DNA of 64,000 nucleotides, from positions 1 to 64,000 of the IMG/VR virus record IMGVR_UViG_3300047400_000324. One strand, 5' to 3'. A program made the position numbers and the translations under genes. This stretch comes from a virus. Taxonomy: Duplodnaviria > Caudoviricetes. This document shows, one piece after another, positions 2,771 through 46,532 of the stretch (position 1 is the first letter of the stretch; each line of letters starts with the position of its first letter). The notes under the pieces are model-generated. The model was given only the letters and a program-made list of their open reading frames with translations, did no database searches and was not told the origin of the DNA.

Positions 2771-4411
2771 TCAAACAAATGATGGACCTAAAGATGCTTT
2801 AAACATCTGTCGTTTTATCGCTAATGTAGTTTGTTCACCAGTATGCTTCATTGAAGCAATTTGTTTTGCGGTTTTTGCAATTTTCTTTAAAATAGCTAGG
2901 GGACTCGCTGTAGTGCTAACTATTAAAGCTTGCAAACTATTATAAATTTTAATAACAGTATTTATTGCATTGATTACATCTGCTATTACTGCTGCTGCTA
3001 TAGCTTCTACTGCGCCAACTGGATCTTCCATAATAGACATACCTATAGAAACCGCAGCCGCAACTTGACCAGCAACAGCAACTGCTTGTGCAGCAGATTG
3101 ATATAATTGAGTAGATGCCAATTGACCCGATGCCATAGGTACAGCTAAACTTTGTGTAAAAGAAATAGAAGCAACATCTGTGATATGTGCTTGCGTTGAA
3201 GGATAATTAGGTTGAGAACCTCTTAAAGTATATACAGTTCCACCAGAAGGATTCAAAGGATTGTAATAACCAATATAGCCAGGATATGGATCTTGATCTA
3301 TAGTATGATATTGTGGAACATAATTTCCCGGAGGCGACATAACTATATTAGTTGGCACAGCAGAAGTAGTCGTTGCAACTGCAATTGGCGTAGGTGGAGG
3401 TATAAGAGAAAATGCTGCGTCTGCAATAGCTTGTGGTATAGCCATAGTTACTCCATGAATATAACCAGTAATTGTATTCAAACCAACTATAGCTCCGGCA
3501 AGTACTTGATCTGCTTCAGAAATAGTTTCAGCAATATCGCCCAACCATTTTATACCGCAAAGATTTTGCATCAAAGCATCCATAAGCGCTTTAACGGCAG
3601 CTAAATCTTGTGCAGCCTCGTTGAGCATTTGAAGCAATTTAAATAAACCAATTTCTTGTGCCAATTTCAAAAATGCGGTTATCGCAGCTTGAACCGCAAG
3701 TTGTATAACTTTCTTCAAAGCACCTGTTATCAAAGAAGATATATCTAATAGTTTCAACAATAAAGTTGGAGAACATGGAAGCGCGGATATTTGACTATAT
3801 GGATCTACTTTATTGATAAGTTGAAATGCTGTCATCGATCCACCTGGAGAAACAGATCCAATTGTGGGAACTTTTGGAATAGTCAAAAGTTTTTCGATGT
3901 CTTTGGTTATGACAGAACCAAAATCGTTTTTTACACTGAATATGTTTTGCATGCCGGCATCTATATCGGCAATAGATACTCTTCCTGGAAATAAAGCAGA
4001 ATATGGATTGTATGGATGAGGAGTAGATGCTTGTGCAGAGCTTGGAATACTTCCCATACTTGTATCTATTTTAGGAGCACCATTTTCTGTTGCTCCAGGA
4101 ACAATATCTCCCGATTTGCCAACTGAACCAAGAACCAATGGCAATTGATGATCTGAATCCAACCAAATACCAGTAATTCGACTTCCTTTGATCAAACCAG
4201 TAGGTGCAGAACCGATTCTTCCTTGAGCTGCACTCGTTACTGGTTGTTGAACGAGAGCCCATGGCAATGAATCGTCTGGAATATTTGTAGTATCGTCATG
4301 TCTTCCAAATACTCTTATTTGAACACGACCGGATTCATGCGGGTCTTTAACGTTTACAACTATTCCAGTAAAAAAACTTAAACCACTTTGTCCGAAATTG
4401 ATATCTGTCAT
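2771..4411 (-). CDS. gp5: Baseplate hub gp5 N-terminal OB-fold part plus helical region
   Basis: FFTGIVVNVKDPHESGRVQIRVFGRH...LPWA is the gp5/VgrG OB-fold signature; no lysozyme motif recognised. Confidence 0.85.
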   Translation of the reverse strand: MTDINFGQSGLSFFTGIVVNVKDPHESGRVQIRVFGRHDDTTNIPDDSLPWALVQQPVTSAAQGRIGSAPTGLIKGSRITGIWLDSDHQLPLVLGSVGKSGDIVPGATENGAPKIDTSMGSIPSSAQASTPHPYNPYSALFPGRVSIADIDAGMQNIFSVKNDFGSVITKDIEKLLTIPKVPTIGSVSPGGSMTAFQLINKVDPYSQISALPCSPTLLLKLLDISSLITGALKKVIQLAVQAAITAFLKLAQEIGLFKLLQMLNEAAQDLAAVKALMDALMQNLCGIKWLGDIAETISEADQVLAGAIVGLNTITGYIHGVTMAIPQAIADAAFSLIPPPTPIAVATTTSAVPTNIVMSPPGNYVPQYHTIDQDPYPGYIGYYNPLNPSGGTVYTLRGSQPNYPSTQAHITDVASISFTQSLAVPMASGQLASTQLYQSAAQAVAVAGQVAAAVSIGMSIMEDPVGAVEAIAAAVIADVINAINTVIKIYNSLQALIVSTTASPLAILKKIAKTAKQIASMKHTGEQTTLAIKRQMFKASLGPSFV

Positions 4412-41714: not shown

Positions 41715-41788
41715 TATAAATAGTTAATACTAGTCGCGGACTGCCATCCCACTAGTTCTATTGCTAGAGAAAAAAAAGGAGCAACAGC
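41715..41788 (+). promoter_or_regulatory. Late promoter and structured leader of HNH gene 1
   Basis: TATAAATA 41715-41722; ACTAGT-CGC-GGA-CTGCCA-TCC-C-ACTAGT-TCTA. Confidence 0.8.
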
Positions 41789-42367
41789 ATGATTGATATT
41801 TATAATTCATCAGATTACAGAAAAATTTTCATGAAAACATATGGTTCTATACCTAAAGACAAGGACGGTAGATCATATGAAATTCATCATATAGATGGAA
41901 ATAATTCAAATAATTCTCCAGAAAATTTGAAAGCTGTTTCTATAGAAGAACATTATTATATTCATTTGTCTCAAGGTGATTATGGCGCTTGTTTATTAAT
42001 ATCAAGTAGAATGACTACAACACCAGAAGAAAAGAGCAATTTGGCTAGATCTCATGTCATTAAACAACTTGAAGAAAATAGACATCCATGGAAAACAGAC
42101 TCATATCGTGAATCTCAAAGACTAAGAGCTTTATCAGAAAATAATCCATTTCTTGGAGGTGAAATTCAAAGAAAAAGTAGTAGAAAACGTGTAAGGGAAG
42201 GCACACATCATCTTTTAGGCGATAAAACAAATTTTAATATGATTAAAGAAGGTAAGCATCCATCTCAAAAAATATGGACATGCGAACATTGTGATATTAT
42301 CGGTAAAGGAACAACTAATTATATTAGATGGCATGGTAATAATTGCAAAAAATTAATAAAAAAATAA
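41789..42367 (+). mobile_element. Free-standing HNH homing endonuclease 1 (antisense to neighbours)
   Basis: EIHHIDGN.SNN..ENL..V...EH..IH; C-terminal CxxC...H...C. Confidence 0.88.
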
Positions 42368-42392
42368 GTGTCTGGAGTTTCCTCCAGACACT
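42358..42392 (-). terminator. Intrinsic terminator
   Basis: 11-bp perfect stem AGTGTCTGGAG/CTCCAGACACT, GAAA loop on minus strand, followed by U-run. Confidence 0.85.
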
Positions 42393-42497
42393 CGATAAAT
42401 TTGCAGCAATGTCGAGCGGAACCCCACCGTTATTCTCAACTATTCCTCAGATTGATCTGCTTTGCCACTGCGTCCTAGAAACGCTAATGCTGCTTGA
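42360..42497 (-). ncRNA. Candidate ~135-nt late structured RNA
   Basis: Bounded by TATAAATA (42510-42503) and terminator; no minus-strand ORF; several stems. Confidence 0.45.
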
Positions 42498-42521
42498 GAT
42501 TCTATTTATATTTTTAAGATT

Positions 42522-42725
42522 TTAGAAATAAGAATTTTTAGGTGGATTTAGAAAAAAACTTGGAGTCCATCCATCAAATCCAGATCCATTATTCAACGAT
42601 GTCTTTAAAATTTGTGCATCCCATTCATCCTCGCATTGCATTATATTTTGTTCAGTACGACTTTCAAAAATTTCATAGATATCGTTATCGTCCACATTTC
42701 GTTTAATCATATAATTCATTTTCAT
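42522..42725 (-). CDS. Hypothetical protein
   Basis: Co-oriented small ORF; GSGFDGWTP.FF. Confidence 0.6.
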   Translation of the reverse strand: MKMNYMIKRNVDDNDIYEIFESRTEQNIMQCEDEWDAQILKTSLNNGSGFDGWTPSFFLNPPKNSYF

Positions 42726-42731
42726 TTTCTC

Positions 42732-43934
42732 CTATGCAAATCCTTCAAATTTCTTAGAAAATTTAGACCTATTTTGAAAAAATTCATTATCTCGTTGACC
42801 ATATTCTGTTTTATCCATAATTGGAATGTCGTCCTGTATATTCTCCTGTTCTGTTTGATCTACATCGTATAATTTCATTTTCGATCTATCGATACCGATA
42901 ACAAATCGGCGATTTTTAGATAAATCGCTGTATCTATTTTTAAGTTGTTTTACCATAATTTGATTGAACGATTCTAACTGTTCATTGCTAATAAGAGCAA
43001 ACATCAAATCGGCAGTCGCAGGTAATCCGAAACTTTCCGAAACATCTGTCAAAACGACATCGGACGACGCATACCCACTTCTTGTTGTTTGTGTAGCTGT
43101 AACTATAGGAAGATCGTGTTCAACAGCTAAACCACGAAATTCTTCCGCAATAGCCTTTACATAAGTATAACTATTTACCGACGCGGTATATTTTACTCGG
43201 CTAGAAGCACAAATATTGAGATAATCGATATAAATGATATCTGGAATAAAATTCTTTTTCAATTTCAATTCATTCAATAAATGTCTGAAATTTGCTGCAC
43301 CAGCAGTAGACGTTGGATATTCTTTGATAATAAGCTTACCAACAGTTTTCTTTTTTACCCTATCGATTTTTTTCATGAAAGAATCTTTTGGAACGGTTTC
43401 AATTTCATCCAAAGACATATCCAATAGATTTGCATCGATACGTTCTGCAATTCTTTCTTCAGCCATTTCCATAGTAATATAAAGAACATTTTTACCATCA
43501 AGCAAATTGCTAGCGGCAAAATGACACATCGCAAGACTTTTCCCAACACCGGTATTATGGCTTGAAATTCCATTAGTATAATATCTATGATTTTCATGTT
43601 CTACATTAATATCTACGATAGGAATTATATTGCCGGTATAACGAACAGCTCCCCTTTCAAATCCATTTTTTGTTAAAAAATTTGCATATTCAATTTTAGA
43701 TAATTGTAGCGCGCTTATCCATCCATTATCAGTTTCAAATAAATGTTCTGCATTGCATAATACAGATTCACTATTATTTTCCAACTGAAGGCTGTATTCT
43801 TCATAAATTCCCTTATCGATAAAGAAATTTACTCCTACCCATCCATCGGGAGAATCTACTTCAATTTCATAATTTTCTTCTAACATGGTTTTTATTTTAC
43901 TGATAGGGATTTCAATTTCAGTCCAAATTTTCAT
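42732..43934 (-). CDS. gp41: gp41 helicase C-extein preceded by split-intein C-part
   Basis: SD TAGGAGA before ATG 43934; HN|TGVGKS, YITMEM, DYLN, ATQTTR, QLKNRY. Confidence 0.93.
   Translation of the reverse strand: MKIWTEIEIPISKIKTMLEENYEIEVDSPDGWVGVNFFIDKGIYEEYSLQLENNSESVLCNAEHLFETDNGWISALQLSKIEYANFLTKNGFERGAVRYTGNIIPIVDINVEHENHRYYTNGISSHNTGVGKSLAMCHFAASNLLDGKNVLYITMEMAEERIAERIDANLLDMSLDEIETVPKDSFMKKIDRVKKKTVGKLIIKEYPTSTAGAANFRHLLNELKLKKNFIPDIIYIDYLNICASSRVKYTASVNSYTYVKAIAEEFRGLAVEHDLPIVTATQTTRSGYASSDVVLTDVSESFGLPATADLMFALISNEQLESFNQIMVKQLKNRYSDLSKNRRFVIGIDRSKMKLYDVDQTEQENIQDDIPIMDKTEYGQRDNEFFQNRSKFSKKFEGFA
43554..43934 (-). mobile_element. Split intein C-part, 127 aa
   Basis: Block B-like CNAEH, block F IVDINV, terminal YYTNGISSHN with +1 Thr. 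Confidence 0.92.
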
Positions 43935-43948
43935 TAAAAAATTTCTCC

Positions 43949-44021
43949 TATAAATAATATTGTAGATCGCGATGCTACCAACATCCATCTACTCTAACGT
44001 CTGAAAAGGAGACATCAGCAA
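43949..44021 (+). promoter_or_regulatory. Late promoter and structured leader of HNH gene 2
   Basis: TATAAATA 43949-43956; GTAGAT-CGC-GATG-CTACCAA-CATC-C-ATCTAC-TCTA. Confidence 0.8.
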
Positions 44022-44657
44022 ATGTATTTACGCATTTATAATAATCTATGTTCATCAAATTGTCAACGAAAAGAATTGTGGTTGCCAGGTTCTGGTATTC
44101 ATAGACATCATATATTACCAAAACATATGGGCGGATTGGATGAAGATAATAATTATACATATCTATATCCACGCGAACATCAAATAGCACATTTTTTATT
44201 ATGGAAAATATATAAAAATCCAAATGATCTTAGATCAATGCATATGCTTGGTGCAAAATTAACTATTTCACAGAGAAAAATTGTAGGCATTTGGTGTAGA
44301 GACAACAAAATAGGAATTCATGGTTCTTCCTCTGAAAATAGAAAACAGTGGGCTTTAAAAGGATTAGAAACACAAAAAGAATCAAATAATAAAAAAACAT
44401 TTTATTATTGGTCTACAGAAACTGGCAGAAAAGAACGATGTGCTTTGGGGGGAAAATCTGGTTCTAAAACACAAATAAAAAATAAAATTGGTATATTCGA
44501 TTCTAATAAAAGAACTGAATATGCTAAACTTGGCGGACAATCATTGAAGGGAATGATTTGCGTAACCAATGGTATTCATAGAACTAGAATTAAACCTCAT
44601 TTATTAGATGAATATGTGTCAAATGGTTATCGTTTAGGATTTACTCTTTTTTCCTAA
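44022..44657 (+). mobile_element. Free-standing HNH homing endonuclease 2, antisense between the two helicase-intein halves
   Basis: HRHHILPKHMGG.D..NN...L..REH..AH.LLWKIY. Confidence 0.9.
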
Positions 44658-45276
44658 ATCTTATTCTAACTTTTGTATCTGGATGAACACATCCTGCCAA
44701 TATAACATTCAATGTCTTTCTAGAAAGCCCGCCTTTAGTGATAAGATTCATGTATTCCAGATTGAAAGGCATTTTTGCTTCTTTACGATGATAAAAATCG
44801 TAACGAGTTTCAGCGTCTTCCAAAAAACTATGACCAATATTAGAATCGAAACTTACAGCCAGAGCATCGGATAAAATCTGTGGTATTGCGCCTTTATCAT
44901 ATTTGCTATTTTTATTATCCAAAATTTGAATAGAATCCATAATAGCATTATAAACGGCTTTTTCTTGACAAAATTTTTCTGTTTTTTCTACAAGCCAATC
45001 TACTTCTGTTTTAGGATCATAAGAGAGTTGATCTATGATATCTTTGCACATATCATGAATTGGTTGACTTATACCAGTTTTTGAATTCATTTCAACTTCA
45101 ATCGCTTCCTTTGATGGAAAGCGATTGAATTTGTTTACATAATTTTCAATCAATTCAAAAATAATTTTGTCGGAAATATCATGAAAATATTCCGATTTTA
45201 GAAAAGGTATTACTTTGCGTGCATAATCGTCACGATTTATAATATTACCAAAAATTACTTGTTCAAAAGACGCCAT
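44641..45276 (-). CDS. gp41: gp41 helicase N-extein ending in split-intein N-part
   Basis: RKVIPFLK.EYF, LS.ALAVSFD..IGH.F, LNVILAG|CVHPDTKVRIRFRKKE-stop. Confidence 0.93.
   Translation of the reverse strand: MASFEQVIFGNIINRDDYARKVIPFLKSEYFHDISDKIIFELIENYVNKFNRFPSKEAIEVEMNSKTGISQPIHDMCKDIIDQLSYDPKTEVDWLVEKTEKFCQEKAVYNAIMDSIQILDNKNSKYDKGAIPQILSDALAVSFDSNIGHSFLEDAETRYDFYHRKEAKMPFNLEYMNLITKGGLSRKTLNVILAGCVHPDTKVRIRFRKKE
44644..44691 (-). mobile_element. Split intein N-part, 16 aa
   Basis: Block A CVHPDTKV starts right after AG of the Walker A loop. Confidence 0.88.
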
Positions 45277-45508
45277 GCAACCTCCAGGTTGTTTTATCCA
45301 ATCTTATATTTCCATTTACAAAATTTTTTGCAATACTTTCCATATAATCCATGGATTTATTCGTAGTCAAAATACTGTCGAAGAGAATTTCATCTTTATA
45401 AAAATCTACATAATAATTTCCATTCCATAAAACAATGCAAGATTTCAAAGAATCTTTTAAATTGATAAATCTATTTAATTCAACTTCATTCTGATCTATC
45501 TTCATCAT
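45263..45508 (-). CDS. Conserved hypothetical protein between uvsX and 41
   Basis: Internal MMKIDQ start; co-oriented. Confidence 0.6.
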   Translation of the reverse strand: MMKIDQNEVELNRFINLKDSLKSCIVLWNGNYYVDFYKDEILFDSILTTNKSMDYMESIAKNFVNGNIRLDKTTWRLHGVF

Positions 45509-46532
45509 GGAGCATTTCCACCAATCCTGTAGAGTATTTGTTTCTAATCCATTCAGCGAAATTTGTTTCTTCAAAAATCGTTTTCCAAAATTCATTATTG
45601 TCTATAATCTCCGCAGCACGATATTTCTTATCCATCACTTCACCAGTTTCTTGATTGACTCTTGCATACCAACCAACACTTGGCTTTGTAATAAATTTGC
45701 CCTCTAATGCCAAATCCAACATTCCAGAACAACGATTGATTCCTGAATCATATGTTACTGTAATGGGAATTTTAGATTTTTCTTTGACATAACGGGACTT
45801 TTCAATGCTGATAACAAAATGATAACCAACAATTTCTTTATCGTCTTTTTCTTGCTGACGACCAATAATCCAAATATTGTCAGCCGAATAATATACGCCA
45901 GTTCCTCCACTTACTACAGGTTTTGAATACATTTCTTGTGTCATATAGACATGATTTACCACAACCATAGGAATATCTTTCATGGTTAAATGTGGTGTTA
46001 ACATTCTAAACAAAGATTTGAGTTGTTTTGCGCGTGACATATCGGCTGCCGAATTTTGTTTCATGGCATCTTCAACTTCTTTCTTCGAAGCTAAATTGCC
46101 AATAGAATCAATAATAATCATAACTTTATCGTCGCGCTTGATTTCATCCATTTGTTTCATAATATCGAATTTAAGCTGTTCGATATCAGTAACAGGTGTA
46201 TGAATTACAGATTCTTTTGGTACACCGAACATATCGAAATACGATTGAGGCGTGCCAAATTCCGAATCGTAAAACAAAACAACACCATCGGAATATCTTT
46301 TAAGAAAAGCAGATGCCATCAAAAGACTAAATGCTGTTTTAAAATGCTTCGAAGGAGCAGCCAAAACAGTCAATCCGGGGGTTAAACCACCATCTATTCT
46401 ACCTGACAATGCTACATTGATCATAGGAATGGCAGTCGGAATCATATCCTTTTTACCATAAATCTTAGATTCTGTCAAGATAGCCGTATGTGACACGGTA
46501 CTGTTTTTTATCAATCTTTCTTTTAAAGACAT
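45486..46532 (-). CDS. uvsX: RecA-like recombinase UvsX
   Basis: APSKHFKT, FYDSEFG, IDSIGNLASKKE, GGTGVYYSAD. Confidence 0.97.
   Translation of the reverse strand: MSLKERLIKNSTVSHTAILTESKIYGKKDMIPTAIPMINVALSGRIDGGLTPGLTVLAAPSKHFKTAFSLLMASAFLKRYSDGVVLFYDSEFGTPQSYFDMFGVPKESVIHTPVTDIEQLKFDIMKQMDEIKRDDKVMIIIDSIGNLASKKEVEDAMKQNSAADMSRAKQLKSLFRMLTPHLTMKDIPMVVVNHVYMTQEMYSKPVVSGGTGVYYSADNIWIIGRQQEKDDKEIVGYHFVISIEKSRYVKEKSKIPITVTYDSGINRCSGMLDLALEGKFITKPSVGWYARVNQETGEVMDKKYRAAEIIDNNEFWKTIFEETNFAEWIRNKYSTGLVEMLHDEDRSE

Follow-up and report, generated by a model that had tools for sequence, protein, structure and literature searches.

How can an essential replication gene still serve a phage when it is broken inside its ATP-binding loop and a nuclease gene of opposite orientation lies in the break? 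This question is raised by a gp41/DnaB-like helicase locus in the 64,000-nt stretch of IMG/VR record IMGVR_UViG_3300047400_000324 that we examined, hereafter called the window (the whole record is 75.8 kb and 46% complete). The open reading frames (ORFs) of the two helicase halves, the sequences at their borders and the antisense HNH gene in the gap were all found where an initial annotation of the window had placed them. Our analysis shows that the element interrupting gp41, the gene of an essential helicase, is a real intein, atypically split and probably functional, with a short N-terminal piece (IntN) ending one gene and a long C-terminal piece (IntC) opening the other. In a search for a close cultured relative, megablast compared the region with 50,697 phage records and gave no match.

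The divided helicase and its intein

The helicase parts on either side of the intein (the exteins) are continuous with each other. The PHROG 19 profile (DnaB-like helicase) matches residues 2-195 of the N gene at profile positions 161-361 (expectation value, E, 4.7e-39) and residues 128-382 of the C gene at positions 362-602 (E 3.6e-75), with position 361 followed by 362 at the joint, none lost and none duplicated. The C-extein also matches Pfam DnaB_C (E 3.2e-13) and is approximately 65% identical to cyanophage gp41. When aligned, the uninterrupted gp41 of Synechococcus phage Bellamy reads KTLNIALAG-TGVGKSLFMCH over the same point, and 21 intein-free environmental alleles read ILAG-TGVGKS. 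Cutting out 16 + 127 residues restores the uninterrupted helicase exactly, and the claim of the initial annotation that splicing would restore the Walker A sequence AGTGVGKS holds both in the profile and against the intein-free alleles. Because these alleles read LAG/TGVGKS (a slash marks the border between intein and extein, or its site), the threonine following the intein (Thr+1) is the native P-loop residue and not a peculiarity of the gp41 intein.

The start of the C gene was assigned from its ribosome-binding signal. An AGGAGA Shine-Dalgarno (SD) sequence lies 9 nt ahead of the ATG at 43934, whereas an upstream ATG has no such site, and the relatives of this gene likewise begin within a few residues of a conserved tryptophan; we therefore take its product to be the 400-aa protein beginning MKIWTE. 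Residues 120-133 of this protein, YYTNGISSHN/TGVGKS, form the border between intein and extein.

Among sequences of the PDB, the 127-aa IntC matches the VidaL intein (6vgv) with E values of 6.2e-10 and 1.4e-10 and, more weakly, the Spl DnaX and gp41-1 inteins. The 31-residue tail of the N gene, a query too short to score, found no PDB match by itself. The homology of IntN to the N part of VidaL was established through L018, an unsplit relative among the 80 loci that we describe of the 152 IMG/VR loci carrying this kind of intein. The L018 intein aligns with fused VidaL over residues 5-143, the N part included (VKIRFKKK vs. VQIRLTKK). Its AlphaFold2 model, built on an alignment of 25 sequences, has a predicted local distance difference test score of 96.2, and a Foldseek search with the model returned 6vgv first (template-modelling score, TM, 0.87; root-mean-square deviation, 1.9 A), followed by top matches that are all inteins. 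The VidaL-type identity proposed by the initial annotation is upheld by the IntC alignments as well as by the model. Strands 7-14 and 17-24 of the model form a hairpin, and the break of the window intein maps to the turn at residues 15-16. By this mapping the window intein is broken after the second beta strand, in the turn of the first beta hairpin, which is the S1 split position described for VidaL and PolB16 (PMC13014065).

The residues required of a class-1 intein are also in place. Cys1 directly follows ILAG in the window, where the motifs CNAEH, VDINV and SSHN/T are found, and Cys1, the block B histidine, the block F aspartate, the terminal His-Asn and a hydroxyl residue at +1 are invariant in 25 of 25 sequences, down to 29% identity (H77, D122, H140 and N141 in the alignment numbering). 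The net charge is +4 for IntN and -6 over residues 1-40 of IntC; such complementarity is usual among split inteins (PMC2677866). In unsplit relatives the two pieces form one sequence: P0063 reads ILAG/CVHPQTKVKIRINWTEKEVEIQDIK...SSHN/TGVGKS, P0100 reads CVHPSTKVKIRYRKHKPTDCGETWIEKEV... and P0066 reads CVHPETKVKIRFRKISWWIEKE.... This continuity shows that one domain has been divided between the 16-residue tail of the N gene and the beginning of the C gene. The evidence supports the identification of the element as a class-1 intein consisting of a 16-aa IntN and a 127-aa IntC and homologous to VidaL. Its conserved residues would be expected to permit protein splicing. The coordinates of the locus are collected in Table 1.

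Table 1. Positions in the window of the helicase genes, the intein pieces and the neighbouring features.
Feature	Position	Strand	Description
N gene	44641-45276	minus	211-aa ORF; C-terminus LNVILAG/CVHPDTKVRIRFRKKE-stop
Helicase N-extein, gp41/DnaB-like	44692-45276	minus	195 aa; C-terminus KTLNVILAG, first half of Walker A
IntN	44641-44691	minus	CVHPDTKVRIRFRKKE, 16 codons and a stop; Cys1 as nucleophile; net charge +4
Free-standing HNH gene, putative MobE-like homing endonuclease	44022-44657	plus	211 aa; antisense to both helicase halves
C-gene ORF	42732-43988	minus	likely start ATG at 43934, giving a gene at 42732-43934, 400 aa
IntC	43554-43934	minus	127 codons, MKIWTE...HRYYTNGISSHN; block B His, block F Asp, terminal His-Asn
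Helicase C-extein	42732-43553	minus	273 aa plus stop; first residue Thr+1; TGVGKS is the second Walker A half
Putative sigma-70-like promoter	44038-44066	minus	TTGACA-17-TATTAT (11/12); within HNH codons 6-15, directed at the C gene
T4-type late-promoter motif	43949-43956	plus	TATAAATA; 73 nt 5′ of the HNH ATG
Conserved hairpin	43962-43992	undecided	divergent intergenic region between the HNH and C genes
Second HNH gene	41789-42367	plus	192 aa; Pfam HNH_3, E 2.9e-10; phrog_12324
Terminator-like GC stems and T runs	42895-42930	both	3′ part of the helicase C gene

We regard as highly probable an account in which a mini-intein in the Walker A loop of gp41 was split by a reversed MobE-type cassette and acts by trans-splicing, with apparent divergent promoters at the cassette. 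The gp41/DnaB-like helicase gene of an uncultured T4-like phage carries the mini-intein, and an HNH cassette of the T4 MobE type would have landed, reversed, in the turn between intein strands beta 2 and beta 3, leaving two genes. Their products are an N-extein with a basic 16-residue IntN and an acidic 127-residue IntC with the C-extein. The basic IntN strand would dock on IntC and complete the HINT (Hedgehog/intein) fold, and class-1 trans-splicing, by way of a Cys1 thioester, attack by Thr+1 and cyclisation of the asparagine, would yield a 468-residue helicase with an intact AGTGVGKS. The cassette would bring a late promoter, TATAAATA, and a hairpin leader for the nuclease, and a sigma-70-like promoter, antisense in the first codons of the nuclease gene, would serve the C half; the reversed insert need not then end transcription of that half. 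It is reasonable to infer that the phage needs trans-splicing in order to replicate, and a second helicase copy is possible but unsupported. A single helicase locus was found in the record, and likewise in four relatives whose lengths reach 129 kb and whose completeness reaches 73%.

Several points weigh against this account. Pfam intein models score neither on IntC nor on the unsplit relatives, and because Pfam gave no intein match the identification rests on the sequence and fold matches to the PDB. The fold test was made with the unsplit L018 intein, 58% identical to the window IntC, and not with the two window pieces joined. VidaL, the only characterised relative, is approximately 30% identical and, judged by its closest natural match, belongs to UvsX rather than gp41; no splicing experiment on the window intein or any other gp41 member appears in the literature consulted. 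The incompleteness of the record leaves room for a second helicase in its unseen part.

Could the two helicase halves instead function unjoined, the intein pieces being a non-covalent clasp or irrelevant, as might be compared with nrdA-a/mobE/nrdA-b of Aeh1? There are published cases of phage genes that HNH endonucleases have fractured and that work although no intein is present (Friedrich 2007, described in PMC2677866). However, a break within Walker A would leave 143 foreign residues in the ATP-binding loop, and a clasp would not need the catalytic residues and Thr+1, which are invariant in the 25 relatives; we consider this alternative unlikely. Our confidence is lower still in a decaying, non-functional helicase allele whose work is done by a helicase in the unsampled half of the genome or by that of the host. 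Such a reading draws on the part of the genome that the 75.8-kb record does not cover, but each half is an intact ORF and has a good ribosome-binding site, many diverged lineages retain the arrangement, the C-gene protein occurs in identical form on 33 contigs, and the more complete relatives mentioned above have one helicase locus each.

We give almost no credence to a rejoining of the halves at the RNA level, whether by a group I or group II intron, RNA trans-splicing or translational bypass, in which the resemblance to an intein would be coincidental. Group I introns with endonuclease ORFs do occur in T4-like phages, but an Rfam search of positions 42000-46000 on both strands found no family at E ≤ 1. 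The ORF in the gap is antisense, the N gene has a stop codon of its own, and the C gene has its own SD, ATG and promoter motif. Moreover, the intervening residues correspond to a HINT fold homologous to a solved intein. The intron reading was set aside.

The reversed HNH gene and its promoter motifs

The protein encoded in the gap matches phrog_655, annotated as "homing endonuclease" (E 3.9e-18), and weakly Pfam HNH (E 0.033). In a tblastn comparison with T4 mobE, 89% of the query aligned at 29% identity (E 8e-6), and a sequence search of the PDB matched no solved structure. Residues H27, H29, N44, H53 and H57 are invariant among eight homologues of both orientations, and homologues occupy the same gap in about 20 loci. 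These features point to a MobE-like HNH homing endonuclease that presumably has nuclease activity. The second plus-strand HNH gene of the window (Table 1) encodes a protein of a different HNH family.

The HNH gene is tightly fitted between the helicase halves. Its end overlaps that of the N gene convergently by 17 nt (44641-44657), covering the last five codons of IntN, and its late-promoter motif TATAAATA has one base in common with the complement of the C-gene SD (tctcct, 43944-43949). Both the overlap of the ends and the contact of the late promoter with this SD had been pointed out in the initial annotation, and both are confirmed. The motif occurs 20 times in the window against 12.3 expected. 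It precedes the antisense HNH gene in 12 of the 14 loci of this arrangement in which an HNH ORF was found (the window and 13 relatives), and a copy at 41715 lies 74 nt 5′ of the second HNH gene of the window. Fracturing endonucleases preceded by a late-promoter motif and a hairpin are known from earlier work (Dassa 2009; Gibb & Edgell 2007; both through PMC2677866), and by analogy TATAAATA may serve as the late promoter of the HNH gene.

A hairpin follows this motif in the window and in four relatives as well as in the leader of the second HNH gene (41715-41791). RNAalifold, applied to six sequences, recovered 10 pairs, 8 of them with compensatory changes. The hairpin sits in the late leader of the HNH gene, and its complement lies in the 5′ untranslated region of a C-gene transcript from the sigma-70-like promoter. 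Because all pairs are Watson-Crick, the strand is undecided, and a role in the opposite transcript is just as conceivable.

The candidate sigma-70-like promoter lies about 100 nt 5′ of the C-gene ATG. We counted matches of at least 10/12 on the C-gene strand within 170 nt upstream of the C gene, for which the background is 0.076 per 170 nt. After dereplication, all 13 lineages that have an antisense gap ORF showed such a match, against none of the 13 others (those with a sense HNH gene, no gap gene or a distant sequence). The compared lineages are related, so that this contrast is no true probability, and this counts against the promoter. So does the frequency of sigma-70-like hexamers in DNA of 31% GC, a local scan at the 9/12 level having found 22 against 19.2 expected. 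In nine lineages the -35 hexamer lies 44-51 nt inside the HNH ORF, in all three frames and over CQ, SQ, KSR or LVN; because it is kept in three reading frames over different residues, its nucleotides are conserved independently of the HNH protein. The first codons of the second HNH gene of the window (41789) contain no strong sigma-70-like promoter, only 9/12 matches at the level of chance.

We read the motif as a promoter of the C half's own, probably an early one, that accompanies the reversed cassette, and promoter use at the cassette is to this extent predicted from sequence patterns. The larger proposal is that the reversed HNH cassette offsets its own insertion, with an antisense early sigma-70-type promoter in its first approximately 16 codons driving the C half, back to back with the cassette's late promoter and a hairpin common to the two divergent transcripts; we would accept or doubt it with equal readiness. 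The link between orientation and promoter is the one feature of the locus that may be undescribed. If real, it would show how an insertion is tolerated in an essential replication gene. A compensating cassette, if true, would be an undescribed route by which a homing-endonuclease gene invades against the direction of transcription without polar damage, and it would account for the presence of the same HNH family in both orientations at one intein loop.

Sequestration of a ribosome-binding site was also considered, as UCUCCU (43944-43949) in a plus-strand read-through transcript pairs with the HNH SD (z -1.8). It was not adopted, because the pairing follows from two divergent SDs and a source of plus-strand read-through is not evident. 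Terminator-like stems lie in the 3′ part of the C gene (Table 1); the local scan counted 5 in 3.2 kb against 1.1 expected.

Allelic states and relation to known systems

The split gp41 intein is common in viral metagenomes and is no rarity. Residues 1-140 of the C gene have relatives in 868 clusters of a large protein collection, most of them 375-400 aa long, which is the split form, and a few of 594-611 aa, which are continuous; the identical C-gene protein recurs on the 33 contigs already mentioned. The IntN motif CVHP[DES]T.[VI].[IV]R is kept in at least 30 loci, IntN is 14-20 aa long and Cys1 is present throughout the relatives. The residue at +1 is threonine in 33 loci and serine, as in VidaL, in seven more distant matched loci. 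The initial annotation had considered the window intein to be a new variant with a short N part and Thr+1; this claim was not sustained, since both properties are the norm among hundreds of environmental relatives.

The gap between the halves is occupied in several ways. An antisense HNH gene lies there in the window and in L004, L005, L009, L012-L015, L019, L020, L022-L024, L026, L029, L032, L033 and L037, and an HNH gene of the same family is on the sense strand in L006-L008, L011 and L036. The intein is split with no gap gene in L021, where stop and start overlap, and in L028 and L034 (16-20 nt), and it is unsplit in L018, L025, L030 and L035. One 90%-identity cluster includes the unsplit P0063 together with the split pair P0121 (...KIRIKKKA-stop) and P0123 (MTNWTEKE...), so the cassette has probably been gained or lost very recently. 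This presence/absence polymorphism of the split at one site was seen in relatives and not in the window's own lineage. When IMG/VR was scanned with P0121 and P0123, every allele recovered was intein-free or more distant. The N-extein of the intein-free helicase alleles L086-L106 (ILAG-TGVGKS) is 67-88% identical to the P0063/P0121 lineage, and because of this resemblance the intein-free state, the unsplit intein and the split intein with cassette all exist among fairly close phages. Taken together, these alleles complete the cycle that Dassa et al. (2009) proposed.

According to Neugebauer 2017 and Burton 2020, as cited in PMC13014065, VidaL (PDB 6vgv/6vgw) is naturally split at S1, has a 16-aa IntN, depends on cysteine and splices with a half-life of about 1 min. 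The window intein has in common with it the 16-aa IntN, the break after strand beta 2, Cys1, the block B histidine and the NHRYY...SHN C-terminus, and both have a basic IntN and an acidic beginning of IntC. The crystallised VidaL ends in SH(A)SGK, and among natural inteins it is closest to that of UvsX in Pseudomonas phage PA5oct (E 4.7e-37); we therefore consider it a recombinase allele with Ser+1. The window intein appears from these comparisons to be an approximately 30%-identical paralogue of the UvsX-type VidaL, placed in the gp41 P-loop with Thr+1. A helicase allele is said to have been named "VidaL T4Lh-1" by Neugebauer in 2017.

In PA5oct itself, a cultured jumbo phage, and in 10 close relatives, a UvsX-like recombinase gene is fractured in a like manner (L002; NC_071039, 133463-139840). 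Its pieces, in locus numbering, are an 81-aa ORF at 1260-1505 ending GESG/CLPETAKVKIRLSKKQS-stop, a 477-aa ORF at 1558-2991, and IntC with UvsX at 2995-4266 (...SSHN/SGKS). The 477-aa gap ORF is on the same strand and has no Pfam match. These records annotate the fractured pieces only as hypothetical proteins and UvsX-like recombinase.

The fractured genes described by Dassa 2009, including gp41-1 to gp41-8 (PMC2677866), resemble the window locus in that the host gene is gp41 of T4-like phages, that the halves lie in their original order at one locus, each with a split-intein part and with a free-standing endonuclease between them, and that TATAAATA and a hairpin lie 5′ of the endonuclease. 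The relatives without an endonuclease (L021, L028 and L034) resemble gp41-7. The differences are equally clear. All three genes are on one strand in 26 of 26 of those loci, whereas the window HNH gene runs opposite to the helicase halves. The endonucleases there belong to the GIY-YIG or Vsr-like types rather than being HNH/MobE-like, and the inteins, except that of the terminase, are split at the canonical site instead of S1. In addition, gp41-1 is inserted at TRSGY/SSS, a site that is uninterrupted in the window (TRSGYASSDV), whereas the window insertion is in the P-loop. A search of the literature for endonucleases encoded opposite a split intein brought up no relevant work.

With MobE of T4 and mobE of Aeh1, the window HNH gene shares the HNH motif, the late-promoter motif, the leader hairpin and the fracturing of an essential gene of replication or nucleotide metabolism; it differs from T4 MobE in its low identity and in being inserted within an intein, antisense, and not directly in the host gene. 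Other atypically split inteins are AceL TerL (25 aa), GOS TerL and PolB16 OarG (15 aa) (PMC13014065, PMC10189870). They are similar in having a short IntN with the N-extein, a long IntC and a phage or metagenome origin. However, in the TerL inteins the break follows helix alpha-1 (the S2 site), and PolB16 is cysteine-less (Ser1), in contrast to the S1 split and Cys1 of the window; in the Foldseek search with the L018 model, PolB16 scored far lower than 6vgv (TM 0.54). The window locus is an expected extension of known systems and no new kind of biology.

A split intein whose first piece is so short that it can be made by peptide synthesis is a valued tool for protein ligation. To our knowledge, few inteins with a short IntN have been characterised, namely VidaL, AceL and GOS TerL, and PolB16. 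The S1-split family of gp41 (IntN of 14-20 aa, Cys1, Thr+1) offers many ready-made variants in an essential phage helicase, and its unsplit and intein-free sister alleles record each step in the fracturing of a gene by a mobile nuclease.

Further breaks were noticed among the relatives. A second break in the helicase, at the gp41-1 split-intein site TRSGY/, is found in L010, L018, L028, L035 and protein P0066, the last having an unsplit P-loop intein followed by a gp41-1-like IntN at its C-terminal end; the second gap of L028 holds a homologue of the other HNH gene of the window. A few kb 5′ of the helicase, another gene has intein-like N-termini, GGG/CVFGGTLIKMADE... at L035:1620 and SGG/CMVAGTEIIMYDG... 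at L037:920.

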